Shown here: piece by piece, positions 21,364-56,281 of the stretch
Position numbering within the stretch: the stretch's first letter is position 1
Layout of the letters: each line of letters opens with the position of its first letter
DNA from: Trichormus sp. ATA11-4-KO1
Lineage (GTDB): Bacteria; Cyanobacteriota; Cyanobacteriia; Cyanobacteriales; Nostocaceae
NCBI GenBank assembly: GCA_019358915.1
Contig: JAHHIM010000028.1
Span: 1 to 58,601, forward strand
Length of the DNA: 58,601 bases
Direction of reading: 5' to 3'
Translations under genes and position numbers: made by a program
Notes under the pieces: model-generated
What the model saw: the letters and a program-made list of their open reading frames with translations, nothing else
The model's database searches: none
Told to the model about the DNA's origin: nothing

Positions 21364-21534
21364 GGGAGCAACGCGATTTTGTGAGGTGCGAAAAATTTGT
21401 AACATAAGTTACGTGGATGGTGAGCGTTCGCTACCTAGAAAAGGTAAAAATAGGGAACTTCGACCTCGGTTTATTAGGAATAAGCCCTGGTAATTGAGAT
21501 ATCAAATCCGATCTCACATTTTCGCGTTGCTCCC
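21364..21534. mobile_element. 171-bp MITE with TIRs and 8-bp TSD
   Basis: TIR gggagcaacgcga (13 bp perfect, 19 of 22 when extended); TSD GTTGGTTT at 21356-21363 and 21535-21542. Confidence 0.92.
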
Positions 21535-38586: not shown

Positions 38587-39890
38587 TATCGTACCCCAGT
38601 GACTACCATTTCAAATTCGGGAGGTACCATAATAAATCCACGCCGTACAGGCTTTATTGGTCTGTTCACAACTAATGCTAATTTCAAACGTGACAAAATT
38701 GTTCCCAACACAAGTTTTATCTCAAGCTGTGCTAAAGCAGCTCCAATACAACGGCGATTACCACCCCCAAAAGGTAAATATTCATAAGGAGAAAATTGCC
38801 TTTCTAAAAACCGTTCTGGCTTAAATTGCTTTGGTTCTGGGTAAGTTTCTGGTCGATGATGAGCTAGGTAAATTGAGACATTAACACTTGTTTCAGGTTC
38901 AAACCAATAACCCATTATTTCTATTGGCTTTTGAACAAAGCGTGAAAAGGAGAGCAAGGAAATTGGATACAGACGTAATGCCTCAGAACAAACTGCGCTA
39001 AGATAAGGCAGTCGTGCTATTTCACTTTTATCTCCAACAGAAATAATTTCGTTTATCAGGTTTTTATGAACTTCTGGTAAGTAGTGACTCCAGTATAATG
39101 ACCACGAAAGAGCAGCTGCGGTATTTTCATATCCCGCAAAAACTATTGTTATTAAAGAATCGCGTACTTCAGTCTCTTTCATTAATTGTCCAGATTCATC
39201 TCTTGCCTCTAAAAGCATAGCCAAAATATTGCTGCACGAAGCAGTACCCTGTTTTTTAGCCTCAGCAATGAGCGCATATAACACTCGATCAAGCTGCTGT
39301 ACCTGAATTTTTAAACTTTCTTGTAATATTGGTAAAATTGTTGCGGATATCAAAGTTAAAGGATGATTTATCAGATCAAACAATTTAAGCAGTTCTTTTT
39401 CAAGTTGATTGTAGAGAACACCTGCTTTTAGCCCAAACACAACATTTAGAATAATTTCCAAAGAAATTTCTTTCATGAGCGAATTAACTACAATAAACTT
39501 TCCCGGACTCCAGCGACTTATAACTTGTTCAGTTACTGCACAGATGATTTGACTGTATTCGCGGATTCGTTCTGAGTGAAAACAAGGCATCAACATCTTT
39601 TTTTGGCGTTGATGTTGCTCACCACTAAGAGATATAAGAGAATTCTCTCCCAGTAAGAAAGTGAGAGAATTAAACTTGCGATTTGGACTTAGATACTCTG
39701 GATCAGATGTAAAAATTTTTTGTATGGACTCCGGGCTACTAAAGTAAACAACCGGAGGAAGTTCATTCGCTAAAACTCTAAAAGTATCGCCATAACTTTG
39801 ATGCCAAGCATCCAAAGTTTCTAATGGGCGAAGGAAAAGCTGGAGAGCCTGAACTAAAGACGAATTTCTTGGCCCATCAAGAGCAGACAT
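38586..39890 (-). CDS. Cytochrome P450 (CYP110-like)
   Basis: EALR, FKPERF, PFGGGNRRCIG heme ligand; I-helix AGYENT. Confidence 0.95.
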   Translation of the reverse strand: MSALDGPRNSSLVQALQLFLRPLETLDAWHQSYGDTFRVLANELPPVVYFSSPESIQKIFTSDPEYLSPNRKFNSLTFLLGENSLISLSGEQHQRQKKMLMPCFHSERIREYSQIICAVTEQVISRWSPGKFIVVNSLMKEISLEIILNVVFGLKAGVLYNQLEKELLKLFDLINHPLTLISATILPILQESLKIQVQQLDRVLYALIAEAKKQGTASCSNILAMLLEARDESGQLMKETEVRDSLITIVFAGYENTAAALSWSLYWSHYLPEVHKNLINEIISVGDKSEIARLPYLSAVCSEALRLYPISLLSFSRFVQKPIEIMGYWFEPETSVNVSIYLAHHRPETYPEPKQFKPERFLERQFSPYEYLPFGGGNRRCIGAALAQLEIKLVLGTILSRLKLALVVNRPIKPVRRGFIMVPPEFEMVVTGVR

Positions 39891-39923
39891 AAGGAAACAA
39901 TTTCTTGATATCGTTGCTTTTTA

Positions 39924-39939
39924 AGTATACTAGTATACT
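39924..39939. promoter_or_regulatory. 16-bp perfect palindrome in the 70-bp divergent intergenic region
   Basis: AGTATACTAGTATACT between the P450 and TpsA starts. Confidence 0.45.
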
Positions 39940-39960
39940 GTATGTCAAGCAATTAAAATC

Positions 39961-42522
39961 ATGAAAACAAAATACAGCAGTTTTCTAAATGCAAGTGTAG
40001 TATCACTATTTATCTCTTTTTCAATATCAGTTTCATCAGAAGCTCAAATTACACAAGATATTAGTTTACCTAATAATACCAATGTCAAAATAGAAGATAA
40101 TAACAGAATTGTTGAAGGGGGTACTCAACTAGGAAATAATCTTTTTCACAGCTTTTCCGATTTCTCTGTCCCTACTGGAAGTATAGTTCATTTTAATAAT
40201 CCATTAGATATTAGAAATATCATTACTAGAGTTACTGGTAGCTCACTTTCTAATATTGATGGCTTAATTCGAGCAAACGGTATGGCTAATCTATTCTTAC
40301 TTAATCCTAATGGAATTGTTTTTGGTCAAAATGCCCGATTAGATATTGGCGGCTCTTTTGTTAGTAGTACAGCAAATAGTTTAAACTTTGCCGACGGTAC
40401 TAAGTTTAGTGTCAGAAATCCTAAAATTACATCTCTACTAACAGTAAGTGTTCCTGTTGGACTACAATTTGGCAGTAATTCCGGGACAATAGAAGTACAA
40501 GGTAATGGACATACTATTCAGCCTTTCGATGTTCTTTTCCCTCTCAATATCAGCAATTTTTCTGGTTTGCAAGTAAATCCTGGTAAAACTTTAGCTTTAA
40601 TAGGAAGAGATATTTTATTGAAAGGTGGAATACTCACCTCTGCTGATGGAAGAATTGAGTTAGGAAGCGTTAATACAGGAGAAGTAGATATTAGGCAGAT
40701 CAATGATTCGTTGTTTTTTGATTATGAAAAAGTTACAGAATTTTCTAAGATAAACTCTTTGGAAAATTCTTTAGTTTATGTCGGCAGTAGTGAAGGAGCC
40801 GAAAATAGTATTAATATTCAAGGAAGCGAAATAAGAACATTGGATGGATCTTTGATTATTAGCCAGAATTATGGTTCTAGAATTAATGGAGGAATAGATA
40901 TTAATGCCTCTAAGCTTCTAGAAGTCAAAGGACAGTCTCAATTTATAACTAGTGGTATCTTTACAAGTAATTTTCTACAGGCATTAGGAGAAAAACTTGA
41001 AATTAATTCAAGAGAAATTATAGTTGAAGGAGCACAAATAGCAACAACTTCTTTTAGTGAAAAATCTGGCGGCAATCTATCCATTAATAACGTTAATCAT
41101 TTAAGAATTGCTGGCACCAATCCTTCTCCAGTTAATCCTTTAGGTTTTGGTGGTATCAATACTTTTAGCTACGCCTCTGGCAGTGGAGGAGATATATTTG
41201 GAATAATCAAAAATGTAGAATTAGAGAATAGAGGATCTTTGGCTGCTATTTCTACTTCTATATTTTTTCCATCCTCTGGACAAAGCGGTAATTTGAATTT
41301 AAATTCAGAAAATATTTTGATTAAAAGTGGCAGCAGTTTAGGCTCTTTAACTTTTAGCGGAGGTGACAGTGGTAGTGTTAATATTAATGCAAAAAAATCA
41401 GTACAGGTAATAGGGCAATCTCCCTTTTTTGAGCCTAGCTTAATTCAATCTGCTACTTTTGGTGCTGGTAATGCTGGCAATTTAGAAATTAATACTTCAA
41501 GAATATTAGTTCGAGATGGAGGAACTATAAATACAAGTACAGTTTCTTTGGGCAACGCTGGAAATCTCAATATTCAAGCTTCTGATTTAATAGAAGTGTC
41601 AGGAATAAATTCCAATTCAAAAAGGCCTAGTTCAATATCATCATCAGGAACTATTGCAGAAGAAAACCTAAGACAAAGGTTCAATCTTCCTCCAACTCCT
41701 TCTGGTAATTCAGGAAATGTCAGAATAAGCACCGGGAGATTAAATGTTACAAATGGTTCTCAGGTTAGTGTCTTTAATGTTGGTTCTGGTAATGCAGGAG
41801 TACTTCAAATTGAAGCTAACAATATTAATGTCTTAAATACTGGAAGTATAGTTGCAACCACTGCTATTGGACAGGGAGGTGATATTACTCTTCAGTCAAA
41901 ATATATCCAGCTTCGCAATGGCGATATCTCTGCAACTGCTGGACAACAAGGCAGTGATGGTAACGGTGGAAATATCACCATTAATACAGATATTCTGCTT
42001 GCCATCAAAAATAGTAGCATTACTGCCAATGCCTTTGAAGGGCGGGGTGGTAACATTAAAATCGATACCAAGGGGCTATTCCTCTCTCCTGACAGCCAAA
42101 TCACAGCCAGTTCAGAAAGAGGTATTGACGGTACGGTTCAAATCAATTCTTTAATTAGAAACCACGTAGAAACCACGGCAGAACCAGAAGCAGTTCAAGC
42201 AGACACTAAGATCGCATCAGTTTGTCAAGGGCGATCTGGCACAATAGCCAGTAGTAAATTGACCATTACTGGTACTGGCGGACTACCCCCTAGCTCTAAC
42301 GATTTACTAGACAGTAATTTTGTTTTAAATAATTCCTTTGTTTCACTTCAAAAAACTGATAATAATACAGTGAGTAAACAGTTAATATCTGAAGAACCAA
42401 TAGGAATTGTAGAAGCTCAAGGTTTAATGCAAAATTCTCATGGGAAATTATTCTTGACAGCAGAACCTAATTCAGTAATCCCTAATACTTCATTATCTGC
42501 TCATTCATGTGCGGGAGGATGA
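39961..42522 (+). CDS. Filamentous haemagglutinin-like TpsA exoprotein
   Basis: Signal peptide, NLFHSFSDF, SNIDGLI, NLFLLNPNGIVFG TPS domain, GNAGNL beta-helix repeats. Confidence 0.92.
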   Translation: MKTKYSSFLNASVVSLFISFSISVSSEAQITQDISLPNNTNVKIEDNNRIVEGGTQLGNNLFHSFSDFSVPTGSIVHFNNPLDIRNIITRVTGSSLSNIDGLIRANGMANLFLLNPNGIVFGQNARLDIGGSFVSSTANSLNFADGTKFSVRNPKITSLLTVSVPVGLQFGSNSGTIEVQGNGHTIQPFDVLFPLNISNFSGLQVNPGKTLALIGRDILLKGGILTSADGRIELGSVNTGEVDIRQINDSLFFDYEKVTEFSKINSLENSLVYVGSSEGAENSINIQGSEIRTLDGSLIISQNYGSRINGGIDINASKLLEVKGQSQFITSGIFTSNFLQALGEKLEINSREIIVEGAQIATTSFSEKSGGNLSINNVNHLRIAGTNPSPVNPLGFGGINTFSYASGSGGDIFGIIKNVELENRGSLAAISTSIFFPSSGQSGNLNLNSENILIKSGSSLGSLTFSGGDSGSVNINAKKSVQVIGQSPFFEPSLIQSATFGAGNAGNLEINTSRILVRDGGTINTSTVSLGNAGNLNIQASDLIEVSGINSNSKRPSSISSSGTIAEENLRQRFNLPPTPSGNSGNVRISTGRLNVTNGSQVSVFNVGSGNAGVLQIEANNINVLNTGSIVATTAIGQGGDITLQSKYIQLRNGDISATAGQQGSDGNGGNITINTDILLAIKNSSITANAFEGRGGNIKIDTKGLFLSPDSQITASSERGIDGTVQINSLIRNHVETTAEPEAVQADTKIASVCQGRSGTIASSKLTITGTGGLPPSSNDLLDSNFVLNNSFVSLQKTDNNTVSKQLISEEPIGIVEAQGLMQNSHGKLFLTAEPNSVIPNTSLSAHSCAGG

Positions 42523-42763
42523 ACAGCACAAGTATTCCCAGAGATAAAAACAGAGCTTTAAACAACTAGACATGGGCTAAAGCATTCATAACAGAACGAC
42601 TACAGACTACCAGTTTGAAAAGCCTACTTTTGTGCTGGGTAAAGTTAACTTCAAGATGAAAATCCTGATTTTCACTTGTAAATATTTTAAAAATTGTAGA
42701 AACTTAAGGTTTAATACAAAATTTTCCCTGAGTGAAAATTACTCTTGACGGCGGAACCTAATA

Positions 42764-45256
42764 ATGACTAAATATCGATATTGGCCAAAGTACCTACTAA
42801 TAGGTACTTTGGCTCTTTTTATAGTTGTAGTTCAACTATCTTTTATCCCGGTTCAAGCTGTCCAAAAAGCACAACAACAGCAGGCAGAGTTATTAACCCA
42901 GAGAGGTCAAGAGCAATTGAATCAAGGTCAGGCGGCAGAGGCCTTTAAGTCCTGGCGACAAGCTACAAAAATCTATCATCAACTAAGAAATTCTGAAAGT
43001 GTTACTGGAAGTTTAATTAATCAAAACTTCGCTCTACAAGCTTTGGGTTTATATCCTCAGTCCTGTACAACACTTTTAGAGGCTTTGAAATTAGATTCTT
43101 GGATTTGCGCTACTTCGCTAGAACAACCTAGCGTTTCAATTACTGAACTGTTAACGGCAGCTATTGATAAACAAACCCCCTCACCTGTAACTTTGGTTGG
43201 ATTGCAGAACCTAGGAAATGTCTTGCGTCGATTGGGCAAGCTCTCTGAATCAGAAGTAGTTTTGCAGAGAACATTATTTCTTGCCAAACAGATACCTTCT
43301 TTTGATATCAATACAATTTTACTATCTTTGGGGAATACTAAACACTCTATTTACAAGCAAACACAAGATAAATACTACTGGATAGATGAACCCGTTTTTA
43401 AAAAAGAAGCCGCCAATCTAATTCAGCAAAAAGCACTCGAATCACTTGAGGCATACAAACAAGTTAATAATACGTCAGATGTACCAATCACAAAGCTACA
43501 ATCCCAACTAAATTGTTTGAAACTGCTGTTAAATTTTGATAAATGGTTGAAAGAAGAATCCAAATTAGATAATACTAACTCATCCTTCTATCTGTCTGAA
43601 ATTAATCAATATATCCAACAGTTGGTAAATTTAATACAAGAAAATTCTCCTACGTTTTCTCAACTGCCTCTGAGCCAATCTGTTTATGCCAAGCTTAATT
43701 TTGCTAACAGTTTAAATCAAATTTCAGATGAATTACACTCAATAGCTGTTGAGTATGCTGAAAGTGCTTTACAAACTGCTCAAAGCACGAACAACCAGCG
43801 ACTAAAATCAGAAAGTTTAGGTACTTTAGGTAAATTAAAACTAAAGCAATCACAAACCTATTTTGAAGAAGCTTTATCCCAAGCTCAATCAATTCGAGCA
43901 TGGGATCTTGCCTACCAATGGCAGCAGGAATTAGGGTATCTATACCAAAAACAGGGAAAAACAAAAGCAGCCCTTAAAGCCTATGGTGCCGCGATTGAGA
44001 GTATTACTCAAGTCCGCGATAATCTCCTGTCAACCAATGCAGATTTGCAGTTTTCTTTTTATGAAAAAGTGGAACCTGTATATCGCGATTATATGCGATT
44101 GCTTTTAGCATCTCCTCAGCCTAATTTAAAACAAGTACTTCAGACAAACGAACGACTACAAACAGCAGAACTAGAAAACTTTCTACAATGTGGCAAACTT
44201 GATATTATCCCTTTGAATGAAGTTAAAAACCTGCCTAGCTCTCCACCAGTAATTCACATTATTGATTTGGGTGACAGTATAGAAGTGCTTGTGCAATCAA
44301 CAGATGCTTCTCTTCACCGCCATTCTGTTGATTCAAAATTAATTCGAGAGCATGTTGATAATTTATTAGACATTTTGCAATCTCCTAAGTTAGCTTCTAT
44401 TACTAAAAACCTAATTCTTGCACATTCTCAAGCACTTTATAATTTACTGATTGCACCTATTAAAACATACTTACCCTCATCAGGAACAATAGTATTTATT
44501 TTAGATACATCTTTCCAAAGCTTGCCTATGGGATTGCTATATGACGGGAAAGATTATTTATTTCAACACTACAACATTGCAGAAACTTTGGGTTCTAAGG
44601 TCAGGCAACCCAAATTTTTATCTAAAAAACAGATGCGCGCTTTGATCGCTGGGCTATCTCAGGTTGGACCCAGTTTCAGTGACGCAAATTCTCCACTAGG
44701 CATCAAAGCACTACCAGGAGTAGAAGTAGAAGTAGAAAATATACAAAAACAAACTACCTCTTCAAAGGTATTGCTAAATGACCAGTTTACCAGCCAAAGA
44801 CTTGAGCAGCAATTGAGTACAACCGATTATCCTATTATTCATCTCAGCACTCATGCTCAATTTAGTTCCGATGTTCAGCGAACAATTTTTTTTACATGGG
44901 ACAAACTGGTGACCGTATTAGAGTTTAATAGTTTGCTAAAACATAAAACTCAAACTAGTGAAAATGCTATTGAGTTATTAGTTTTGAGTGCTTGCGAAAC
45001 TGCGAAAGGAAATAAGCGTTCAGCACTGGGAATAGCTGGAGTAGCAGCACAAGCTGGAGCAAGAACTACTGTAGCAACTTTGTGGAAAGTAGATGCCGGC
45101 TCCACTGCTTTACTGATGGAAGAATTTTACAAGAACTTGAACAATGCTCCCAAAGCAGAAGCACTTAGGCTTGCACAGATGAGTTTATTCTCCAATCCTC
45201 AATACAAACATCCTTATTTTTGGGCTGGCTTTGTGCTTGTCGGTGGATGGTTATGA
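42764..45256 (+). CDS. Secreted TPR plus CHAT (caspase-like) domain protein
   Basis: N-terminal signal/TM segment, TPRs, HLSTHAQF, LVLSACET, HPYFWAGFVLVG. Confidence 0.92.
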   Translation: MTKYRYWPKYLLIGTLALFIVVVQLSFIPVQAVQKAQQQQAELLTQRGQEQLNQGQAAEAFKSWRQATKIYHQLRNSESVTGSLINQNFALQALGLYPQSCTTLLEALKLDSWICATSLEQPSVSITELLTAAIDKQTPSPVTLVGLQNLGNVLRRLGKLSESEVVLQRTLFLAKQIPSFDINTILLSLGNTKHSIYKQTQDKYYWIDEPVFKKEAANLIQQKALESLEAYKQVNNTSDVPITKLQSQLNCLKLLLNFDKWLKEESKLDNTNSSFYLSEINQYIQQLVNLIQENSPTFSQLPLSQSVYAKLNFANSLNQISDELHSIAVEYAESALQTAQSTNNQRLKSESLGTLGKLKLKQSQTYFEEALSQAQSIRAWDLAYQWQQELGYLYQKQGKTKAALKAYGAAIESITQVRDNLLSTNADLQFSFYEKVEPVYRDYMRLLLASPQPNLKQVLQTNERLQTAELENFLQCGKLDIIPLNEVKNLPSSPPVIHIIDLGDSIEVLVQSTDASLHRHSVDSKLIREHVDNLLDILQSPKLASITKNLILAHSQALYNLLIAPIKTYLPSSGTIVFILDTSFQSLPMGLLYDGKDYLFQHYNIAETLGSKVRQPKFLSKKQMRALIAGLSQVGPSFSDANSPLGIKALPGVEVEVENIQKQTTSSKVLLNDQFTSQRLEQQLSTTDYPIIHLSTHAQFSSDVQRTIFFTWDKLVTVLEFNSLLKHKTQTSENAIELLVLSACETAKGNKRSALGIAGVAAQAGARTTVATLWKVDAGSTALLMEEFYKNLNNAPKAEALRLAQMSLFSNPQYKHPYFWAGFVLVGGWL

Positions 45257-45261
45257 AACTC

Positions 45262-45340
45262 TGTTAGTGGAAGCATAAGTTGTCTATAAAACACTATTTA
45301 TGCTTCTAATTGAGTTTGGACAACTTATGCTTCCATTTAT
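45262..45340. repeat. Transposon end distal to tnsAB, with TnsB-binding sites
   Basis: tggaagcataagttgtct at 45268-45285; degenerate site near 45290-45307; ggacaacttatgcttcca at 45318-45335. Confidence 0.85.
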
Positions 45341-45363
45341 ATAATCTGTCACAATTAGTTTGC

Positions 45364-46929
45364 TTATTTTTCATAACCTAGCTCACGACGTATTTTCTTA
45401 AACTCAGCACGAACATGTGGTCTAAGCAACACCGCAGGCTTAGTCAATAATGCTGAAACCTTTCCACTCGTTGGTTTTATTCCTTTTTGGTGAAGTGACA
45501 GTGCAACCTGCCGGATCTCTTCATAAAGCTCACTTTTCCTTTTTTTGCTTTCAGCTTTTCGATACTGGCTATGTCTTGCTGAGATTGTGTCGCACAAATC
45601 TGAGCAATGTTCCCGCCAGAAATAAGGATACCCAGTAATTTTCACTTGCCTGGCAACCTCCATCAACGAAGGTGGCGGTAAATCATCGTTTTCTATTACT
45701 GCTTGCAGGAGGGTGCGTGTATTGGCTATTTTTTGATTAAGTCTATATTCCCTATACCGCTGTGAGATAGAACGGCAAATATCTGGAACCCATGCTTTCA
45801 AAACCGTGCGGTTAGTATTGAGTCTCTTTATAACCATTTCAAAGCTCGGTGGCGGAAATTCCTCTAAAGCATCTTGTAGTATTAAAATTACCTGAGGACG
45901 ATTCAGTCGATTGCGCTTCTTAGGGCACTGTATTGGCGGGCTAACAAACTGCTTTAATTCACTAAACCCTATCTCATTCGTTGGAGTTATCAAGAAATTT
46001 GTCAAAGAAGTATTTAGGTGAAAACATATTTTTAAGAGTTGGTTTAGCTGAGGTTTCGCCTTGTCAATAACCCAATTATGAAAGGACGTTTCCGGTTGTT
46101 CAATAATACGAGAGAATGCATTAATTTTGCCACCTGTTACATAATTAATGTAAAGTTTTAACACTTCTTTAATTCTGGCTTGAGGTACTGGAGAGCGAAG
46201 ATAATTTCCGGCTACAAGTAATTGTCCAATATTTCCTACTACCCATAACTGCCAGTTGAGTTCATGCTCTGGTAAAGACTCCAAACTAGAAGAATGCCCT
46301 AACCATCGACTACAGTGTGGACAGTATCCTGGTAAAGAATTGGACTTCAGCAAAGATGGAACCCGTTCACAATAAGGACACTTCTGAAACAAACGAGTCT
46401 GGTGGATTGGGCAGATTGTCACAAGATTAAATGACCAGATGAGTGGATCATAAGCTCCATGATGAGTCAAGTTTTGCATTTCATAACACGTTGGACACCA
46501 TGCTTTAAAGGAGCGAAGTAACCCTTGTGATGCAAGAACTTCCGCCCAAGACAGTACAGTCAAACTGCGTAAATCGTTCCGCAGAGTTAATCTCTCAAGT
46601 ACTTCAATAACGCTTACAACCGTCTTTCCAGCACCATTCAACATACTTGTCTGAGCAGAGTTTCCTCCCCAAATTGCCCTTATCCCTGACTGAGCATCGC
46701 TGTATACAAAGTCAGGTCTAATCAAAGGGGCAATAAGCTTGCCAATTAAAACACCAGGGCGTAATCCATGCTCTTGCGCCAGACGAATAACATAACTCGT
46801 TAAACTCTCCAAGGTTGGTGTTCCAGCCCCAGCAGGCTCTAATGAGTAAAGTCGGCTACGTGGGGGAATGGGAAGTTGCTGAAGATTCCAGGAATCGTAT
46901 GTTGTCAACGAATCAGCCAGCAGATTCAT
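45364..46929 (-). CDS. tniQ: TniQ/TnsD target-selector protein
   Basis: ESLTSYVIRLA, Zn ligands CPTC/CPIH/CPYC/CPHC, C-terminal HTH repeats; 521 aa, TnsD-like length. Confidence 0.88.
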   Translation of the reverse strand: MNLLADSLTTYDSWNLQQLPIPPRSRLYSLEPAGAGTPTLESLTSYVIRLAQEHGLRPGVLIGKLIAPLIRPDFVYSDAQSGIRAIWGGNSAQTSMLNGAGKTVVSVIEVLERLTLRNDLRSLTVLSWAEVLASQGLLRSFKAWCPTCYEMQNLTHHGAYDPLIWSFNLVTICPIHQTRLFQKCPYCERVPSLLKSNSLPGYCPHCSRWLGHSSSLESLPEHELNWQLWVVGNIGQLLVAGNYLRSPVPQARIKEVLKLYINYVTGGKINAFSRIIEQPETSFHNWVIDKAKPQLNQLLKICFHLNTSLTNFLITPTNEIGFSELKQFVSPPIQCPKKRNRLNRPQVILILQDALEEFPPPSFEMVIKRLNTNRTVLKAWVPDICRSISQRYREYRLNQKIANTRTLLQAVIENDDLPPPSLMEVARQVKITGYPYFWREHCSDLCDTISARHSQYRKAESKKRKSELYEEIRQVALSLHQKGIKPTSGKVSALLTKPAVLLRPHVRAEFKKIRRELGYEK

Positions 46930-48112
46930 AAATTCCTCCCACTGGATCTCGTATTACTTTGCGCTTACCAACATTGCGCTTTTTACAACTGAGTTTTTCT
47001 GGCACTGACTGAGATTGGCTGTCAACCTCAAACGGGGTAGGAGAAGCCTGTACTAGTCCAGCACTCAACCCCAAAGCTAAACTTAATTTCTCGCTTGCAT
47101 CGGACGTTTCAACTAATTGTCGCTCACCCTCCTGAATCTCAGCGAACATCTTCTGACACTGGGCTACTGATAATGCATGGTTTTCTAAATGTTGGAGAGT
47201 TAAAGTCGATGCGTTTTCTTTGAGAGCATCAATCAAAGCGCGAGTCAGCCAGTTCTTCAAAACCCCAATACATCCCAAAGAACGCTGATAACAATATTGC
47301 CAATGACACAGAAGATCTGGCTCCTGTGGCAAGGGCAGATGTCGCTGAAAAGTCAGCAAAATGCCCATAAAGGCCTTGAGGTCTTCACTTACATCAGCCC
47401 GGTAACGAGAAAAGTGAATATCGACACTCCGACGACTCAGTTGAGCTGAGAGATTCCGAAATATCAGTAATTCATAAGTTCCAATCAAGATATGTACCAC
47501 ACCCGTCAGATTCACAATCGATTTCAGGCAATCCAAGTTGTCTTGAAGGCGACGACCTGAAGCCATTTTTTGCATATGTTGAGCTTCATCCACAAAGAAT
47601 GCCTGGGGTTGCCGATATTTCAAGGCTTTTTCCAAAGCTCTACGCAGTTCTGGAGCCGCAACTTTGGGCTGAATCACTAACTGCCCCTGTTCATTGCGAT
47701 AAACGCCCTGAGAACCATAATCTATCTTGTCTGCAATCAACGGTTCTTCCAAGGCTATTAGCCCACGCGTAAAATAATCTTTCCAGTTAAAACTGCTAGA
47801 TTCGGTTCCAACGGCTTCAATCCCCACCACTGGAATTCGGTCTTTATCTGCTTCTAACAAAGGTAATACCTGTTGAATTAGCTTTTGTTCAGTGCGTAAA
47901 CGCATGGTCGTTTTACCGATGCCAGTCGGACCGTACACAAAAATGAACGAAGCACCCGCTGGATTTTCAATATTTTGCAGCAGCGTTTTTGTCGCCTGTA
48001 CCAGACGAGGATGTGCAGCTTTATAGGACTCAAAATACTGAAGTCGCTCAGATAGTGGCTGTTTGAGCAGGTCGCGCGGGAAGCGTTGAGAAGCTGACGT
48101 TTCCATCTTCAA
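46913..48112 (-). CDS. tnsC: TnsC AAA+ transposition regulator
   Basis: HPRL, GPTGIGKT, FVDEAQH, QLSRR, SLGCIGVLKNWL. Confidence 0.9.
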   Translation of the reverse strand: MKMETSASQRFPRDLLKQPLSERLQYFESYKAAHPRLVQATKTLLQNIENPAGASFIFVYGPTGIGKTTMRLRTEQKLIQQVLPLLEADKDRIPVVGIEAVGTESSSFNWKDYFTRGLIALEEPLIADKIDYGSQGVYRNEQGQLVIQPKVAAPELRRALEKALKYRQPQAFFVDEAQHMQKMASGRRLQDNLDCLKSIVNLTGVVHILIGTYELLIFRNLSAQLSRRSVDIHFSRYRADVSEDLKAFMGILLTFQRHLPLPQEPDLLCHWQYCYQRSLGCIGVLKNWLTRALIDALKENASTLTLQHLENHALSVAQCQKMFAEIQEGERQLVETSDASEKLSLALGLSAGLVQASPTPFEVDSQSQSVPEKLSCKKRNVGKRKVIRDPVGGIYESAG

Positions 48113-50820
48113 TACTCCGCATAAGTCTGAATTTGGCTCAAATCAATGGAATCTTTAGGCGATGAGCTGACGTGCCAATCCCCTGATTTGTCATTAGCAG
48201 TATTCACTTGAGGCTGAATCGTAAAACCACTTTCCACCTTTGCCTCAACGATCCGAAAGACCTCAGTGGATTGCCCGTCACGAAGTCGCTGCGACAACAA
48301 AACTTCCTCCGCTTCAGCACTGGAAAGAAATTCAGCCAGATGCTTCGCTCGAAGCTTGAGCCGCTGGCTATGATTTTGATGCCGTTTGATCAATTCGGCA
48401 GACGCTAGCAAGATTTCTTTTTCAGATCGTCCTTGAAAAACGGAATAATATTCACTAATGCATTCCACCCACTGCCCGCATACATAGGCATAGGCAACAC
48501 CAGCATTAAAGGGGTCATATCTGACATCAACTAGTTGATTTTGAAGCTCAGGGTCACGAAACAGATTAGACCAGTAATGAAGGTATTTGATCTGAACACC
48601 CTGAGTTGAGTGAATTTTAGCTCTGCCTCTTTGTGTGGTCGGTAACGTCAGAAGTCTAAAATTGGCATCATAGGCAATCATTCTGTGAGAACGGTTCCCA
48701 AAAGTGGTGATTCCATCAGCGAATGCTTCGCGGGGGTTTTGCCCTAGTGCTGGATGATCTAGGGTGTCGTAAATTTCATAACCCCATTCACACAGGTATA
48801 AATACAACAGACCCAGTGTCCAAATCGCGAGATTTTTGGGATTGACAGATTTGGTCATCAATCTAACCGTTTTAGTAATCTGCGTATTTCCGGCAAGGTT
48901 ATAAAGTAACTGTGTGCAAGCAGTTCCAAACAATCGCTCTCCGACAGAGTTGAATCGCGCTTTAGAGGGAGGACGATACTTAAGAGTGCTATCGAACAGA
49001 GCAATCAGCGTTTGAAAATAAGTACTATAAAATTCTTTACCATTATCAACCACAATGGTTTGAGGAATCCGCCCGTGCCGTTTGACACAAATTCGTAACA
49101 GCATCATGCACGACCGATACGAAGGCGGGTCAAACGTAATATAAATTGCCAGAATTCTTCGGCTGTAGGCATCAACCAGAAAAGTTCCCCAAGGTCTTCC
49201 TAAACTCCTGCCGGTACGAGAACAGCGAAGCTCGATATCTAATTCCGTGTGGTCGATATGCCCGATTTCAAAGGGACGCTCTCCATGACGTGGGGTCGTC
49301 AGAGACAATTCCCAATAAAACTGCTGCTGTGAATAAGCGGCTCGGTGTCCTTGACGTTTTAGAGTCTGGTTATATCCTGAACGCGACTTTATTTCAATCC
49401 GAAAGGTTTTATAGCTAGGAATTTGCTCGGTCAATAAGCCTGCTTCTAAACAGGCATTAACGAACGCACCATACACTTCGAGTTTCCGCTTTTGTTTACA
49501 GATTTCGTAATCATCTGTGATGAACTGTTCAATAAGCTGTATAACCTGTTCAGGTAATTTCCGAGTACGATTCCCCTTGCAGTGGTCAGAAGGCAAAAGC
49601 CCTAAATAGCCATATCCATATCTCTGCTGCGCTTGAAGAAACCTTATCTTCCAACGCAGTAGTGTTCGTTCCGAAATAGCTACATTTGCAACAGGTTCAC
49701 CATCAAGTAAGGCACTGACAACCCTGTATCTCTGGTTCGCCCTTTCTAAATCCTCAATGCTTGCTCTTGCTAAGAATTCTCTAACGATAATGTTCCCCTG
49801 ATCTTCGGACTGTGATTTCAGTCCTGAGATTTTTCCCTGGTTAATTAATTGAATAAAGGTAGCTTGGTCAAATTCGACTGTTTGTTGATCTTCGGTCTGA
49901 AGGAGAATTTGGGTTTTACCAACCAAAGCAATCGTGAGAACGCAGCCGTTGTAATCAACAGATATGCCAGGAATAAGATCAATTATTGAAGAATTCAAGG
50001 TATCAACAACGCCTTTTGACAAAACCATTGATTTATAGGCAGCAGCAGTCTGTTGGTCTCGAAAGACAAAACACCGTTCAGGTTCAACAAGCGCTTCTGC
50101 TGTCAAATCAATATAAATTTGCTCTTTAGCAATTAAAAAGTGAGTATCGTCTACATCAACACCAGAAGCGCTGCGCTTTAGCTGCGCGAGTGTTATGCCA
50201 GGCTGAGCAGAAACTAAAGAGCAAACTATCTGTACGCTCTCCTCAGAAATCTTGACATTCCGTGCTTTGTAATAATCCTCCAGAAAAATCAGGTTGCGCT
50301 GCAAGATCCAGTTAATCTCGGCATCTGACCAAACTCGGAAGGCAAATCCAAGCGCTTGAGCATACTTCTCTGCGGGCATCATCCGCCACTGCCTATCCTC
50401 GTCATGGGAAAGACGATTTGGAGATTTTTGAGCAATCTGCTTTAACTCTGACTCGGTTTTGCACTCTACCCACTCAGCACCGTTCCTGCGAATTACAAAA
50501 AAATCTGGGGTGTAGAGAAAGCTGACCGTTTTCCCTGAAGCAGACTCATAGGTCAACTTAATCGGCGGAGGTTGGTCATAAAATTCCAACACGTCTTCGT
50601 CGTGTTCTCGTTGATAAATAAAACAAAGCTCAACTTTATGTGACTCAAATTGAATGTCCACCCCCATCTTCTTGCTGGGGTAGAGACCAGACACATTTTT
50701 CCTGCCTCCACCCACGCGTCGAGAAGGATTTGAGGTGCGTATCTGCTTAATAACTTCGTGAGCCTGCTGTGAAAGCTTTTGTTCTTCACACCAAACCTCG
50801 AATTCTGGCTGTGTGAGCAT
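48109..50820 (-). CDS. tnsAB: TnsA-TnsB fusion transposase
   Basis: N-terminal TnsA (FESHKVE, YDQP, YTPDF, VECK) fused to a DDE core (HIDHT, VDAYSR, VDNGKEF, ERLFG). Confidence 0.9.
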   Translation of the reverse strand: MLTQPEFEVWCEEQKLSQQAHEVIKQIRTSNPSRRVGGGRKNVSGLYPSKKMGVDIQFESHKVELCFIYQREHDEDVLEFYDQPPPIKLTYESASGKTVSFLYTPDFFVIRRNGAEWVECKTESELKQIAQKSPNRLSHDEDRQWRMMPAEKYAQALGFAFRVWSDAEINWILQRNLIFLEDYYKARNVKISEESVQIVCSLVSAQPGITLAQLKRSASGVDVDDTHFLIAKEQIYIDLTAEALVEPERCFVFRDQQTAAAYKSMVLSKGVVDTLNSSIIDLIPGISVDYNGCVLTIALVGKTQILLQTEDQQTVEFDQATFIQLINQGKISGLKSQSEDQGNIIVREFLARASIEDLERANQRYRVVSALLDGEPVANVAISERTLLRWKIRFLQAQQRYGYGYLGLLPSDHCKGNRTRKLPEQVIQLIEQFITDDYEICKQKRKLEVYGAFVNACLEAGLLTEQIPSYKTFRIEIKSRSGYNQTLKRQGHRAAYSQQQFYWELSLTTPRHGERPFEIGHIDHTELDIELRCSRTGRSLGRPWGTFLVDAYSRRILAIYITFDPPSYRSCMMLLRICVKRHGRIPQTIVVDNGKEFYSTYFQTLIALFDSTLKYRPPSKARFNSVGERLFGTACTQLLYNLAGNTQITKTVRLMTKSVNPKNLAIWTLGLLYLYLCEWGYEIYDTLDHPALGQNPREAFADGITTFGNRSHRMIAYDANFRLLTLPTTQRGRAKIHSTQGVQIKYLHYWSNLFRDPELQNQLVDVRYDPFNAGVAYAYVCGQWVECISEYYSVFQGRSEKEILLASAELIKRHQNHSQRLKLRAKHLAEFLSSAEAEEVLLSQRLRDGQSTEVFRIVEAKVESGFTIQPQVNTANDKSGDWHVSSSPKDSIDLSQIQTYAEY

Positions 50821-50904
50821 TGTCTTGGTTATAAGCGCTTACACGCTTACCCTCGCAACTGAGGCTAGCCTACAATATTTACATCAATATTTATAGTAGA
50901 TTTC

Positions 50905-51056
50905 AGACAACTTATGTTTCTTTTTCTGTAGTTTAGACAATTTATGCTTCCAATTGTCAAAAAATGTGTGATAAAAACACGCAGAATTAGATTCAATAGA
51001 ACTTATTTAGGACAACTTATGCTTCCATTTATGGACAAGTTATCGTCCCACTGACA
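50905..51056. repeat. Transposon end proximal to tnsAB, with four TnsB-binding sites
   Basis: Sites at 50905, 50935, 51010 and 51033, then ctgACA. Confidence 0.88.
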
Positions 51057-52072
51057 AACTCTATTATTTTTAGCCCGTCTTGCACATGAGCTAACTCATC
51101 TGAGTTACCAGTCCTTAGAGCCAATTGTTCTGCCTTCTTGTATTCACGAAGCGCTTCATTCGGTAACCACGCTTCTAAATATCTATCTGCCAGTACTCTG
51201 TATAGAGTAGGGTTTTGACTCCCTCTTGAAACTAACACCTTCAATGTCTCAATCGTTTCATTCAAAAGATTTTTAGACATATATACAGCGTCTAGATCCC
51301 AAATAGCAGCTTCCTCTAAAGGTAACCCTAATTCATTAATCTGCTTCACCTGTTGTGCAATAGCGTTTTGCTCTTCTTCACTCAGTACACTGACTACTAG
51401 CGTTTCAGAGGAACTAATAGGCTCGTCGCCCTTGTTGGCAATTACAGTAAATTTGTATGTATTATTAAATGACAATTCCTTTTGTTCTTCCGGGTATGCA
51501 AGTGTTGTAATATTTTTATCTACTGTTTTCTCCCAATAAAATTCGTATCCATCGACAATCACTGTGTAGCTAGTAGCTAATTGAACAGCAGTCCAAGATA
51601 TTTGAGGTCTGGTACTCAACATTGAACTGCCGTAAGGGCTAATTAGCGTTGGCGCTTCTTTCTCCTCACCCGGACTCTTGGGATTGTAGCAAGGGTGAGG
51701 ATTTAATCCTGTGCATAGTACCGCTCTCTCTTGCGGTACTGTACAAGTATCTGATGAATCGAACACAGTACTCTTATTCAAATACAAAAAATTACCACTC
51801 AGGAAACATAAAACCTTGACTGTAGCTCCATTGGCTGGATTGATTCTATCTCCTTCGCACAGTCGGCTTCCACGTGGCAAATAGAGATCCCCTGCACTAA
51901 AAATTCGACCTATAAAGTTGCTACACCTATCTCTCACTATTGCTACTGATTGAGTTGGGCTTCCTGAACTGCTAACACTTGATAAAAGCAGTATTGATGG
52001 TAATGTCGATACAAGCACTACAACTTGAAGCTGGGAAACTTTTTCCTTTATATGGTTTAGTAAAGACTGCAT
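51029..52072 (-). CDS. Secreted Cys-rich, FN3-like/TPR protein; last residues replaced by the transposon end
   Basis: Signal-like segment, PTLISPY..RPQISW, C-terminal TPR; the pre-insertion C-terminus reconstructs as IIEFHNHPPTSTKPAQK. Confidence 0.78.
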   Translation of the reverse strand: MQSLLNHIKEKVSQLQVVVLVSTLPSILLLSSVSSSGSPTQSVAIVRDRCSNFIGRIFSAGDLYLPRGSRLCEGDRINPANGATVKVLCFLSGNFLYLNKSTVFDSSDTCTVPQERAVLCTGLNPHPCYNPKSPGEEKEAPTLISPYGSSMLSTRPQISWTAVQLATSYTVIVDGYEFYWEKTVDKNITTLAYPEEQKELSFNNTYKFTVIANKGDEPISSSETLVVSVLSEEEQNAIAQQVKQINELGLPLEEAAIWDLDAVYMSKNLLNETIETLKVLVSRGSQNPTLYRVLADRYLEAWLPNEALREYKKAEQLALRTGNSDELAHVQDGLKIIEFVSGTITCP

Positions 52073-52167
52073 AAGAGGGTTTTATGTACTTACTTGCCTG
52101 TTATTAGCATACTTGAACTTGATGGCAAAACAAAGAGCTAAAGTCTATACTTGCCCTAATATCCACT

Positions 52168-54030
52168 CTATTTTGATATTTTTGAGTTATTGGTGAGGCG
52201 ATCCAGCAATCCCTGCCTCCACTTGAAAACATCTTGCTGAGTAGTTCTAGCAAGCATACAAATTTCCCACGAAAGCCTAGCATCCTCATTTTTACCTAAA
52301 GCTTCTTGCACCTGAGCTAGCAAACAAACGGCATCTATTCTTTGGCTGTCTAAATCACTTGCTTTTTGTAAATATTTCTCTGCGTCGTTATATTGATTTT
52401 GTATGAACTTTGCCCAACCCAAATTTTTATATAAAGCAGCTTGTAACTGTTGATCTTCAGTTAAGCGCAATCCTTTAAGCGCTAATGCAGTAGCCTGAGC
52501 ATAGTCTTCTTTAAGATTGCTCAGACGCGACAAATTATTAAGCGCAGGTATTGCTTTATTATTAATTTTCAGTGCTATTTTATATTGTTCTTCAGCTAAA
52601 TCGTTTCTTCCTTCATCATCATAGAAACTTCCTAATCTATAATATCCCTCCCAATCATTAGGACTTAATTTCAAAATCTTTTGATAATTATCAATAGCAC
52701 AACGAAAATCACCCAATTGCCAACAAACTACAGCTAAACTATGATAAACATTTATATCTTTATCGTTATACTTAAGGGCTAATTCATAATATTTTTTAGC
52801 TAGCCTAAAGTTGTTAAAATAACGAGCAGCTTGCTCTAAATAAAATTGGGAAACAGAAAGTTTAAGCTGGGAATTATATTCTATTGCTTGGTTAAAATAT
52901 TTTTGTGCATTCTCCGAATCATTCGCTGCTTCTAACTCTTGACCTTTAACTACTAAATGATTAGCAAACGCTGGCAATCCTATTTTATAAATCCCTAACC
53001 CTATCAAACTAGCAGACGCAATTACTACACTAAATATGAACTTCTTAGACCTGGTTATTTTATAAATTTTACTTTGCTGAGGAATTTTTTTAAGTCGTTG
53101 TAAAATAATTTCAGTATTTGCAGGACGATTTCCTGGCATGGGAGCCATTAGTTCATCTATAAAATCAGCTAATGGTTTATCAATCTGAGGGGCTTTATCT
53201 CTCCATATTAGGCTTGTTGTATCTCGATTTGTCGGCAATTCCATTAGGGACACGCCAGTAACTAGACGAACAAAAGTTCGACCTAAAGCATAAAAATCAG
53301 ATTGAGGAACTGCCTTACCATAAATTTGTTCTAAGGGGCTATAATAATGAGAAATTACACTGGTAATTTCATATTTTCCTACTCTTGTATCTGTTCCTCC
53401 ACTGGCACTAACTTTAGCTAGATATGTATCAGTTATTCGTCGTACAGCCCCAAAATCTATCAACGCTAACCGCCCATCTGGTTGAAGAATTATATTCCCA
53501 GGTTTAATATCTCTATGAAAAAATTCAGTATGATGGACTATATCAAGTATTTCAACTAACTGTCGTAACCAATCTAGTGCTACAGATTGTGAAATTGGTT
53601 CATGAAATTTTATCCATTCTTCTAAATTTTGTCCTTCAAATTTATCCATTACTAAGCATCGAAGCTTGAAAGGACTTTGGTTAGGAGTAAAAACAAAAAA
53701 ATCATCTTCTCCATTAGTCTTAGGAATATTCGGATGATTTATTAACTGCAAAGCTAACACTTCTCGTTCAATTCTTTGAACGAATTTAGCAGAACTCCAT
53801 TTCATGACTTTCATGACTCGCCGTTTATGTTCAGGATTATGCTGTGTCCCTATATCCTCTACTTCAAAAATTTCATTGTAAGTAAATGGATTTTCGCTCA
53901 GTTCTCTTAACGGCTTGAGTAGACGAATTCGATTATTGATAAATAATGAAGTTCCACAAGAAAGGCATATCTCGGCATCATCAGGATTTTGCCGTTGTTC
54001 ACAAAGAGGATTTATACAGTAACATGACAT
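52168..54030 (-). CDS. Ser/Thr protein kinase with N-terminal 4-Cys ribbon, TM segment and TPRs
   Basis: YCINPLC..CLSCG, VMK, HRDIKPGN, IDFG, SDFYALG. Confidence 0.92.
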   Translation of the reverse strand: MSCYCINPLCEQRQNPDDAEICLSCGTSLFINNRIRLLKPLRELSENPFTYNEIFEVEDIGTQHNPEHKRRVMKVMKWSSAKFVQRIEREVLALQLINHPNIPKTNGEDDFFVFTPNQSPFKLRCLVMDKFEGQNLEEWIKFHEPISQSVALDWLRQLVEILDIVHHTEFFHRDIKPGNIILQPDGRLALIDFGAVRRITDTYLAKVSASGGTDTRVGKYEITSVISHYYSPLEQIYGKAVPQSDFYALGRTFVRLVTGVSLMELPTNRDTTSLIWRDKAPQIDKPLADFIDELMAPMPGNRPANTEIILQRLKKIPQQSKIYKITRSKKFIFSVVIASASLIGLGIYKIGLPAFANHLVVKGQELEAANDSENAQKYFNQAIEYNSQLKLSVSQFYLEQAARYFNNFRLAKKYYELALKYNDKDINVYHSLAVVCWQLGDFRCAIDNYQKILKLSPNDWEGYYRLGSFYDDEGRNDLAEEQYKIALKINNKAIPALNNLSRLSNLKEDYAQATALALKGLRLTEDQQLQAALYKNLGWAKFIQNQYNDAEKYLQKASDLDSQRIDAVCLLAQVQEALGKNEDARLSWEICMLARTTQQDVFKWRQGLLDRLTNNSKISK

Positions 54031-54115
54031 ATTATTAATAAATTTTAATGATGCAGGCTTGTATAATGCGATATTGAATGTCAGGCTTTTAAGTAGGGTG
54101 TTTTACACCCTACAC

Positions 54116-54352
54116 CTAAATAATGGATTTGCCGTTAACAAGCTTGTCACGAAATAGGGTGTTGGGAAGACGTATTGGTCGAGGGTTGTGATCCACTGGC
54201 TGTTCGATGCTCTTTCTTCCCCCACCCCTACACCAACGGGGCTTGGTCGTTGTCTCAATGTCCATTAAACATATGTTACTTGAAGTAACCTCCATAGTAT
54301 ACAGAACTTTTCCCTTGATTATGATTAGGACGCGAAACCCTCGATAATGCAA
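54116..54352 (-). CDS. Small hypothetical peptide containing CRGGGR
   Basis: Short ORF upstream of the kinase; start uncertain (MEVT or MDIE). Confidence 0.35.
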   Translation of the reverse strand: MHYRGFRVLIIIKGKVLYTMEVTSSNICLMDIETTTKPRWCRGGGRKSIEQPVDHNPRPIRLPNTLFRDKLVNGKSII

Positions 54353-54793
54353 GATTTAGCCAAATAGATTGCTTTAATATCGCTCATTATGTTACATATT
54401 TGAGAAATAGCTTTATCAGTGAGAAAAGTGGTATTATTATACGTGACTTAGAGTAAGGTATGCAAAATCAATTTAATCTCAATACCTTAGCCAATTTACG
54501 AGGGTGAGATGATGATGCTTTAACCATTAACTCCCATTTCTCGCTCGGCTTGGCAAAAACAATCAGCCATAAAATTTCCTTTAAGGTTTCCCACAAGGGT
54601 TTTTTAACGTATTGACAGCAGGATAAGGGTTTGGGATGACAAACTACCTTTTTATCGAAACGCTTATGTATGCTTATTTTTGCCAGTTTTGCCAGTTTTG
54701 CCAAAAATTATCAAGGCTCTTATTTTGGCTAAGGTATTGAATTTCAAAAATATTTCTTGCGGAACTTACTGTACCAAAAGGAAAAGCATCTCC

Positions 54794-56281
54794 ATGAATT
54801 TGAGTAATAGACATGAGGTAGAACCTCAATCTTCTTTCACAACCGTTGTTACACGCAAGCAACCTTCAGAATTACCGTCTTTAGAGACAGTAACCTTTCA
54901 AGAAGTTTTAGACACAGTTAACAACCTAATCTTTGCTCAAAAAAATCGATACTTGTCTGATACTGAGATTATAGTCCTAAAAGGTACATGGGATAGCCAA
55001 GATTTTAACGAAATAGCACAGCAATCAGGCTATAGCATTAATTACATACAGCGTCGCATAGCTCCGCAATTGTGGAATTTACTTTCTGAAACAATTGCGG
55101 AGGGAGAACCAGTAGTCAAGAGGAAAGTAAGGGCTTTATTAACGCAAGTTGCTACAAAATATCATCCGCAGTCCAGTTCAAAATCAGAAGATTTACCCTT
55201 TGATAGCAATTTTGTTAGAGGTCAACTTCCGCTCATATCTAATTTTTACGGCAGACAACAAGAACTGTCTCAGTTAAAGACATTAATTAATAACCATCGC
55301 TGCGTATCATTAATAGGAGTCCCAGGAATCGGCAAGAGTATTTTATCTGCCAGACTTTTGGCAGAACTGAGCATTGAATCTCCACCTAGATTTGATTTGT
55401 TAATTTGGAAATCAGTTACCCATGCAGTAAGTATTCAAGAATTAGTTACCGACTTAATTAAATTAATTCAGCCATTAGAGCCATACACGAATTTACCTGA
55501 ATACAATCAAGCAATTATTACTGTCTTGATTCAGTATTTGCGTTCACATCGATGTTTACTTGTGCTAGATAGTTTTGAAACTTTATTCAAAACACTTAAC
55601 TTAGAACAACGATTAGAATACAGAATACTTGTACGTCGTTTGTTAGAGGAAGAACATCAAAGTAGTTTGTTACTAACTTGTAGAACTTTACCTAATGAAC
55701 TTACTGCCCTATTTAAAAATAAACGTTCTTTTCAGTGTTTCAAGATAGAAGGGTTAGATACAAACTCTGCAATGCAATTTTTGACGGATCAAGGATTAAC
55801 TGATCAAGAAAAATGCCTTGATATCATCAATACTTATCGTGGTAATCCTTCAGAATTGAACACAATAATGCAACGAATTCAACATTTTTTTGCTGGAAGC
55901 ACAGAAAAATTTTTTCAACATAAAACTACTTTTATTAGCGACGAATTTAAGTCAATGCTTGATGAAATGTTCGGTGAAGTGTTAGATGAAGTTGAACGTT
56001 ATATTATGATTTATCTAGCAGAGAAAACAGCTTCAAACATACAGTCTACTAGTTTTGATTATTTATTAAATGAAATAAATAACAATCGATCTATTTCGAC
56101 ATCAGTCATAATTAAAGCTTTAGAAAAGCTTGAAAGACTGTTATTAATTGAAAGTATTAAAGATGAAAACACTAAAGAAATCAGTTTTACTCTACAACCC
56201 ATAATTAGAAAATATGTTGCTAAAGATTTATTAGGATTGGTACATAAATCTGATCCCCAAAATTTTAAAATCGCATCTTAA
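54794..56281 (+). CDS. STAND / NB-ARC-like NTPase with N-terminal HTH-like domain and no C-terminal repeats
   Basis: LSDTEIIVLKGTW, FYGRQQEL, GVPGIGKS, LLVLD, LLLTCR, YRGNP. Confidence 0.85.
   Translation: MNLSNRHEVEPQSSFTTVVTRKQPSELPSLETVTFQEVLDTVNNLIFAQKNRYLSDTEIIVLKGTWDSQDFNEIAQQSGYSINYIQRRIAPQLWNLLSETIAEGEPVVKRKVRALLTQVATKYHPQSSSKSEDLPFDSNFVRGQLPLISNFYGRQQELSQLKTLINNHRCVSLIGVPGIGKSILSARLLAELSIESPPRFDLLIWKSVTHAVSIQELVTDLIKLIQPLEPYTNLPEYNQAIITVLIQYLRSHRCLLVLDSFETLFKTLNLEQRLEYRILVRRLLEEEHQSSLLLTCRTLPNELTALFKNKRSFQCFKIEGLDTNSAMQFLTDQGLTDQEKCLDIINTYRGNPSELNTIMQRIQHFFAGSTEKFFQHKTTFISDEFKSMLDEMFGEVLDEVERYIMIYLAEKTASNIQSTSFDYLLNEINNNRSISTSVIIKALEKLERLLLIESIKDENTKEISFTLQPIIRKYVAKDLLGLVHKSDPQNFKIAS

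Follow-up and report, generated by a model that had tools for sequence, protein, structure and literature searches.

Conserved 3' ends of CHAT-domain genes as a probable multi-copy attachment site of a cargo-free Tn7-like transposon in Nostocaceae

The Element and Its Insertion Site

The window analyzed here, that is, the whole 58,601-nt stretch of contig JAHHIM010000028.1 from Trichormus sp. ATA11-4-KO1 (Nostocaceae), carries an intact Tn7-like element of 5795 bp (45262–51056) with the tips TGT...ACA, inserted behind a host gene (42764–45256, plus strand) for an 830-aa protein with a CHAT domain (Pfam, E 1.9e-54) and TPRs, whose 3' end constitutes the attachment site. An earlier note, made from the sequence alone, had proposed an intact element of this length with a perfect AACTC target site duplication (TSD), and its boundaries hold, the two copies of the duplication being located at 45257–45261 and 51057–51061 (plus strand). 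The left end of the element faces the CHAT gene, the stop codon of which ends at position 45256, and the insertion leaves this gene intact. The codons of the HPYFWAGF motif, which the note had placed near the insertion point, occupy positions 45209–45232, 30–53 bp from the left-end tip. The empty allele is found in a genome of the same genus (G140), where the CHAT gene end, 92% identical, is followed by a single 5-mer and then directly by the right flank of the window element.

The left end (45262–45340, plus strand), target-proximal and with the TGT tip, contains TnsB-type sites in both orientations, at 45269–84 (plus), 45292–307 (minus, degenerate) and 45319–34 (minus), and the right end (50906–51056, minus strand), with the ACA tip, contains four co-oriented ones, at 50906–21, 50936–51, 51011–26 and 51034–49. 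The same site layout is described for the TnsAB clade in PMC9881144. As stated in the note, the gene content is limited to tnsAB, tnsC and one tniQ/tnsD, all on the minus strand and with open reading frames (ORFs): tnsAB for a fused transposase of 903 aa (48109–50820; TnsA-N, rve and Mu-transposase C in Pfam; 1124 bits to PDB 9BW1_M) with a DDE triad predicted from motifs at D523/D592/E628; tnsC for an AAA+ ATPase of 399 aa (46913–48112; AAA_22/TniB in Pfam; Walker A and B motifs intact; E 5.5e-143 to PDB 8FCU_Q, the TnsC sequence common to entries 8V32 and 9BW1); and tniQ/tnsD for a protein of 521 aa (45364–46929), further called TnsD, in which a TniQ core bearing zinc-finger cysteines precedes a helical middle part and two PPPS-helix-turn-helix-like modules. 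With a TnsA–TnsB fusion, a TnsC ATPase and a TniQ-family selector all present, the element belongs to the cyanobacterial TnsAB-fusion clade. No Cascade genes, CRISPR array or small TniQ are found inside its ends, and the absence of cas genes, arrays, tRNA and glmS from the vicinity, also noted earlier, agrees with our data: no cas or glmS families among 28 Pfam-scanned ORFs, a part of the window's ORFs, no tRNA genes in the whole window, and no Rfam families at 42000–55000. The element is cargo-free and appears to be recently mobile, its mobility being indicated, indirectly, by the open genes, the identical ends at two sites, and the 97–99% identical copies in four metagenomes (see below).

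Positioning of Insertions at CHAT Gene Ends

Exact end patterns were searched for in 185,579 genomes, blind to the target. The scan yielded four loci, three of them at +53 behind CHAT motifs: a 208-bp relic with the duplication GCAAT (L038), a left end in a metagenome-assembled genome (L039), and a 63-bp relic with the duplication AAGCA (L041). Allowing for two mismatches in the left end, in 389 genomes of the host's family, added only G164. In G203, an element 97–98% identical to that of the window has lost its left part, and its right flank matches an empty CHAT allele from +48 (118 of 120 bases). This near-identical copy (L073, 150–4970) is decayed, with tnsAB split over two frames and tnsD cut after residue 228. 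Outside the window, five of the six target-blind junctions, G203 and contig C14 (described next) included, are positioned 53 bp from the His codon; a rough estimate of the chance of this outcome is ~1e-25, under generous assumptions of 30 motif ends per 6 Mb and a tolerance of 1 bp.

A second occupied site is present in the same genome. Contig C14 (1–127) opens with a left end identical to that of the window element, placed behind a different CHAT gene; the product of this gene is 25% identical to the window CHAT protein (31% over the aligned C-terminal part), and at each of the two sites 53 bp separate the His codon of HPYxWxxF from the left-end tip. An identical right end in contig C23 (76180–76316) is followed by ATAAA, matching the 5-mer at the C14 left end. 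A third right end, 96% identical, in contig C60 (389–465) is followed by the gene that in G140 lies directly behind the homologous CHAT gene. The 12 bases after the C23 end comprise the duplication, one base and the 6-base left-end tip, and are missing from the G140 homologue. We infer that this second CHAT site was hit twice in tandem, the older insertion at +54 and the newer one at +53, and was later rearranged, the copies collapsing in the assembly. Overall, the genome contains five motif-bearing CHAT ends identified by a regular expression plus one variant, and two of them are occupied. Contig C63 (3–1349) of this genome also contains part of another, distant TnsAB-type transposase with 35% identity.

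For the reverse search, the CHAT motif (Trp-Ala/Gly codons) was joined to a generic end signature at any gap of 39–69 bp. In the 389 genomes of the family this produced 23 matches, and all 13 that bear this left end are at 53 bp (12) or 54 bp (1), the remaining ten being scattered in distance. The same search with Trp-Ser/Thr-type codons gave 18 matches, none with this left end; three of them, L131 at the right spacing and L136 and L137 near it, showed no left-end sequence on inspection and were dismissed as chance. In a 401-genome sample of the order, with 27 members of the family, only two of 12 matches, those of the window's own genome, were at the right spacing; viral contigs gave 45 matches, none at the right spacing, and no match to the end pattern or the TnsD alignment; and all five loci from the end scan of metagenomes matched the window's own assembly. 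The element family is rare and, in the searched data, confined to the host's taxonomic family.

The CHAT targets of the six independent loci are 23–64% identical in protein, and their 48-mers share 25–36 of 48 bases. The candidate recognition sequence comprises the codons of HPYFWAGFVLVG (45209–45243, plus strand), at –53 to –19 from the left-end tip, and the bases invariant over all six sites are A–52, CC–50/–49, T–44, TGGG–41..–38, TTT–32..–30, T–25 and GG–20/–19; this invariance is partly due to codon constraint. At two of the six loci the stop codon is two codons earlier and the spacing is still 53, hence it is the motif and not the stop codon that sets the distance. Insertion at the first base after the stop is a by-product of motif-based spacing, and the view of the earlier note that the element is inserted exactly after the CHAT stop stands in one part, as AACTC directly follows the stop codon, and falls in the other, as the spacing is fixed to the motif. 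Comparison of the aligned junctions shows the left end, in constant orientation and with a 5-bp duplication, at a distance of 53 bp, or rarely 54 bp, from where the His/Asn codon of H-P-x-Y/F-W-x-x-F begins, and short non-autonomous relics follow the same spacing rule. The suggestion that TnsD may target the CHAT family is supported by five of six blind junctions and by 13 of 13 left ends in the reverse search at +53/54, with TnsD itself presumably reading the DNA; and tabulation of ends, TSDs, flanks and distances, as the note had advised, places this element family neither at tRNA genes nor at random sites.

Metagenomes, Plasmids and Genomic Neighborhood

Copies 97–99% identical to the window element are found in four soil or unlabelled metagenomes from four studies; flanks were inspected in four of 17 holders of the element. 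In soil metagenome X3, the right end is followed by the 5-mer and the left end of the older Nostoc relic described next, a tandem insertion at the same site, and a separate contig connects a CHAT-like flank with the left end. Occupied CHAT sites can be reused in tandem, with this one metagenome contig and the case inferred in the window's genome as examples.

One relic, inherited in Nostoc (relic E), resides on plasmid p057_G, adjoining the CyRepA1 replication gene, and has a full-length one-piece match on NZ_CP046704.1. Its copies (L155–L163, L180) range from 63 to at least 294 bp and have acquired different small repeats and insertion sequence (IS) elements; the left duplication copy drifts or is rewritten, and the right one is mostly constant. 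PLSDB contains 119 records with CHAT homologues, 35 of which are predicted to be conjugative, and these homologues often belong to the same cluster as in the window (secretion-protein, CHAT, convergent gene, kinase and NB-ARC). No plasmid match was obtained for the 208-bp relic, and the full element was not found in PLSDB. The expectation of many landing sites, including ones on plasmids, is supported by one occupied plasmid locus and by the plasmid CHAT genes, and has to be scaled down for the genome studied, which has about five or six CHAT ends, two of them occupied.

On the other side of the element lies a convergent host gene (51029–52072, minus strand) with no Pfam family, which natively overlaps the CHAT 3' end, as seen in the empty alleles L222, L225 and L226. 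After the insertion, its last 13 residues are swapped for eight encoded by the right end; where such a gene overlaps the CHAT 3' end, the attachment site is not quite neutral, the last 13 codons of that gene being replaced. Both genes are part of a cluster at 36847–56281 (ShlB/FhaC transporter, TPS-domain protein, TPR-CHAT, the convergent overlapping gene, Ser/Thr kinase-TPR, NB-ARC), which recurs on Nostoc plasmids; in the window copy, a cytochrome P450 gene is interposed. The stretch 10000–34000 of the window is prophage- or mobile-island-like, with Bro-N (14561–15370), DUF5131, a DnaB helicase (28703–30052) and several DNA methylases, and contains a group II intron reverse transcriptase (19963–21405, minus strand).

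Structure and Phylogeny of TnsD

The closest solved protein is PmcTnsD (8V32_J, TnsD–TnsC–DNA complex; E 4e-100), and the TnsD model (mean pLDDT 79) matches it with a Foldseek TM of 0.62. The C-terminal module of PmcTnsD aligns twice on TnsD, which has an internal repeat with 29% identity over 51 aa. TnsD is therefore predicted to have one more helix-turn-helix (HTH)-like module than PmcTnsD, the modules being at about 350–396 and 407–457, and by analogy these C-terminal modules may bind DNA.

In the FastTree tree (90 rows, 15 duplicate or near-duplicate rows dropped, midpoint root), TnsD forms its own clade (support 100) with six Logan proteins of 68–73% identity and one of 45%. This clade is outside the tRNA-associated branch (21 rows, support 96) and the array-targeting branch (support 100), and within a weakly resolved fork (support 81) of ~525-aa proteins, among them the first TnsD of dual elements. 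In genomes, the best matches to TnsD over its full length (35–42%, tblastn) are mostly such first TnsDs of two. A tRNA predicted by ARAGORN is adjacent to 12 of 14 dual-TnsD elements and a CHAT gene to none, leaving the idea that these relatives reside at CHAT genes unsupported.

A sister clade (support 100) consists of single-TnsD elements with TnsDs 33–35% identical (L020, L021, L023, L028, L030, L031, L070–L072, L181, L183, L184, L186, L207). A recurring upstream motif of the type GGGGT-AGAT-TAGCRA is seen by eye about 35–60 bp outside their left ends, in one genome also at three different sites; the consensus in fixed columns is weak (13 of 16 loci mapped), and the offsets vary by a few bases. 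This motif may represent another undescribed multi-copy target. Elements L071, L182 and L186 are in tandem with other ends of their own kind.

Proposed Mechanism and Alternative Explanations

We consider it highly probable that this cargo-free TnsAB-clade transposon, through its single TnsD, uses the conserved 3' ends of CHAT-domain genes as an attachment site available in many copies. As far as aligned genomes can tell, position, orientation, duplication, independence from the stop codon, recurrence at several paralogues, and occurrence on a plasmid are established. By homology with the pathways of PmcCAST and McCAST, two CRISPR-associated transposons (CASTs), the C-terminal HTH-like modules of TnsD would read the codon-constrained bases –52 to –19, its TniQ core would load TnsC downstream, and TnsC would set the distance and recruit TnsAB, which would cut and paste the element, left end first. 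The likely benefit is that the usual 16-codon CHAT tail puts the cut just after the stop codon, so the CHAT gene survives. Given the multiple copies of CHAT genes and their frequency on Nostoc plasmids, a single selector could allow the element both to reside and to spread.

Several observations weigh against this explanation. The sample is small, six independent CHAT loci after collapsing inherited copies, and eight of the 13 matches of the reverse search go back to one event, relic E. Most junctions are relics without their own tnsD, linked to this TnsD via shared ends, and the six TnsD relatives of 68–73% identity contribute no flank to the CHAT rule; the evidence for targeting is comparative genomics, and direct reading of DNA by TnsD is probable by homology. 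At least one CHAT end with the core consensus stands empty in this genome. In metagenome X2, the right end (window position 51056) is followed by a GGC-rich flank of 28 letters, from either a real insertion or an assembly artefact, and the contig stops at the left tip. Finally, one left end from the target-blind scan (L040, 1–220) adjoins no CHAT gene. Both this 63-bp relic and the IS inserted in it are shared with the CHAT-adjacent copy in G164, and the left flank of L040 has likely been rearranged; the original flank was searched for and not found.

Of the other explanations, the one closest to ours accepts the site preference and makes it indirect, with TnsD recruited by a host protein or a DNA structure at CHAT 3' ends, or requiring a cyanobacterial cofactor. 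Such recruitment has parallels, as the TniQ of Tn5053 is thought to sense resolvase-bound res sites and a related array-targeting family is inactive in E. coli, possibly for want of host factors (PMC11837452), and the target 48-mers share only 25–36 of 48 bases. However, the invariant bases are first and second codon positions over 35 bp, the spacing is fixed to approximately 1 bp across genes 23–64% identical, and TnsD seems to retain full C-terminal modules of the DNA-binding type. No host protein is known to bind such coding sequence, and we regard indirect recruitment as unlikely.

It is far less plausible that the element homes, from its right end, to the place where the convergent gene terminates, or to junctions of head-on genes in general: although homologues of one and the same convergent gene form the other flank both in the window and at loci C, E, F and G, site B in the window's own genome has another CHAT type and a different downstream gene at the same spacing, no fixed sequence is seen on the convergent-gene side, and in related elements the recognized sequence is on the left-end side (PMC9881144). 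We give as little credit to an RNA-guided process in trans, for which a Cascade, either of the host or of a CAST, would need spacers that match CHAT ends. The transposase clade does include I-B2 and I-D CASTs (PMC9881144), but the element lacks a small TniQ, cas genes and an array, a quarter to half of the positions vary among the targets, and when both targets of this genome were searched against it with short words (73 contigs, with no separate catalogue of arrays), nothing of spacer length matched apart from CHAT paralogues. A chance outcome, or the inheritance of a single old insertion together with its locus, has a negligible probability; inheritance does hold for the eight Nostoc copies of relic E, counted once, while the independent loci refute it as a general explanation: the duplications differ between paralogous genes, two sites in one genome have identical element ends, and an empty allele exists in the same genus.

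Proceeding from direct selection by TnsD, we offer a broader and more speculative scheme, which we hold to be possible and somewhat doubtful. The radiation of 520–530-aa double-module TnsDs would supply cyanobacterial TnsAB elements with their missing pathway of dissemination, a different multi-copy, plasmid-enriched sequence being read directly by each lineage, and the lineage of the window would be a "gene-family hunter" that reads codon-constrained motif bases across paralogues down to 23% identity and arose by loss of a tRNA-homing partner TnsD. The different recurring upstream motif of the sister lineage hints at the same logic of lineage-specific multi-copy targets.

Comparison with Known Systems

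The attachment sites known for protein-guided Tn7 transposition comprise single conserved genes, tRNAs and CRISPR repeats. In the present case, a single TnsD seems to locate the members of a divergent, multi-copy protein family via the DNA of its most constrained codons, with base-pair placement. CHAT gene ends as a Tn7-type landing site were not found in the literature searched, which excluded figures and subscription papers, including that on the 8V32 structure, and where another gene name could have been used; the word CHAT has no matches in the main text of PMC9881144, PMC10293859, PMC11406308 and bioRxiv 2024.11.13.623437, as far as these texts were covered, or in the covered supplements of PMC9881144, PMC11837452 and PMC10293859, and the same is true of TPR, tetratricopeptide and caspase for the first two supplements. 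Hsieh and Peters (2023, PMC9881144) hypothesized that the long-TnsD group serves as a route onto plasmids; the CHAT rule, which opens sites to the element both on plasmids and in other parts of the genome, provides a concrete testable target for one member of the group. As a natural variant in specificity of PmcTnsD, whose structure is solved, and with one putative extra module of the DNA-binding type, TnsD may also help to study the rewiring of specificity, and the three genes might serve as a compact tool to integrate DNA site-specifically at native plasmid loci of Nostoc-type cyanobacteria.

As in Tn7 with its attTn7 site at glmS (PMC2918618), a protein would read a conserved 3' coding end and direct insertion just downstream. 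However, Tn7 has a single essential target gene, split TnsA/B and a target on the right-end side (PMC11406308), while the window element has fused TnsAB, a target on the left-end side, and a multi-copy CHAT family that is probably non-essential, given its patchy, plasmid-rich spread. Tn5469 is likewise a cargo-free TnsAB element with one TniQ (PMC9881144, PMC11406308), but is described as untargeted, and the strictly positioned window element is set apart from it by this description.

Closer relatives are the tRNA-homing PmcCAST (I-B2, 8V32/9BW1) and McCAST (I-D), which share with the window element homologous TnsAB, TnsC and TnsD, a target beside the left end, the 5-bp duplication and left-end sites in both orientations. 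Unlike them, the window element has no tRNA target and neither Cascade nor small TniQ; the tRNA gene at about 29–33 bp from the left end, a trait of elements with tRNA-homing TnsD, is missing from it and from its CHAT-site relatives, and its TnsD is about 60 aa longer than those of the tRNA-associated clade (about 460 aa). In length it resembles the "secondary" large TniQ/TnsD (about 525 aa) of dual, tRNA-resident elements, judging by the legend of Fig. 1C in PMC9881144, but differs in being the sole selector and forming its own clade.

The CRISPR-array-targeting Tn7-like family of cyanobacteria (Chacon Machado and Peters 2025, PMC11837452) is also cargo-free, with minimal tnsAB-tnsC-tnsD and several copies per genome, has a multi-copy target on chromosomes and plasmids with the motif about 40–50 bp from the left end, and includes degenerate copies possibly moved in trans. 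A target-proximal left end and a recognized motif at 40–50 bp from it are described for related elements in general (PMC9881144, PMC11837452). In E. coli, that family proved inactive, and its authors suggest that host factors may be involved; its TnsDs, 50–90% identical to AfTnsD (PMC11837452), are about 410 aa and lack the C-terminal HTH, whereas the window TnsD, with 521 aa and an extra module, is 35% identical to the array-targeting TnsD over 75% of the length and is on a separate branch. Moreover, the array-targeting family hits a repeat, while the window element and its CHAT-site relatives are not inserted in CRISPR arrays and the window element hits the coding sequence of a paralogous gene family. 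In lifestyle the window element is closest to the CRISPR-array-targeting family, yet it is a member of neither that family nor the tRNA-homing group.

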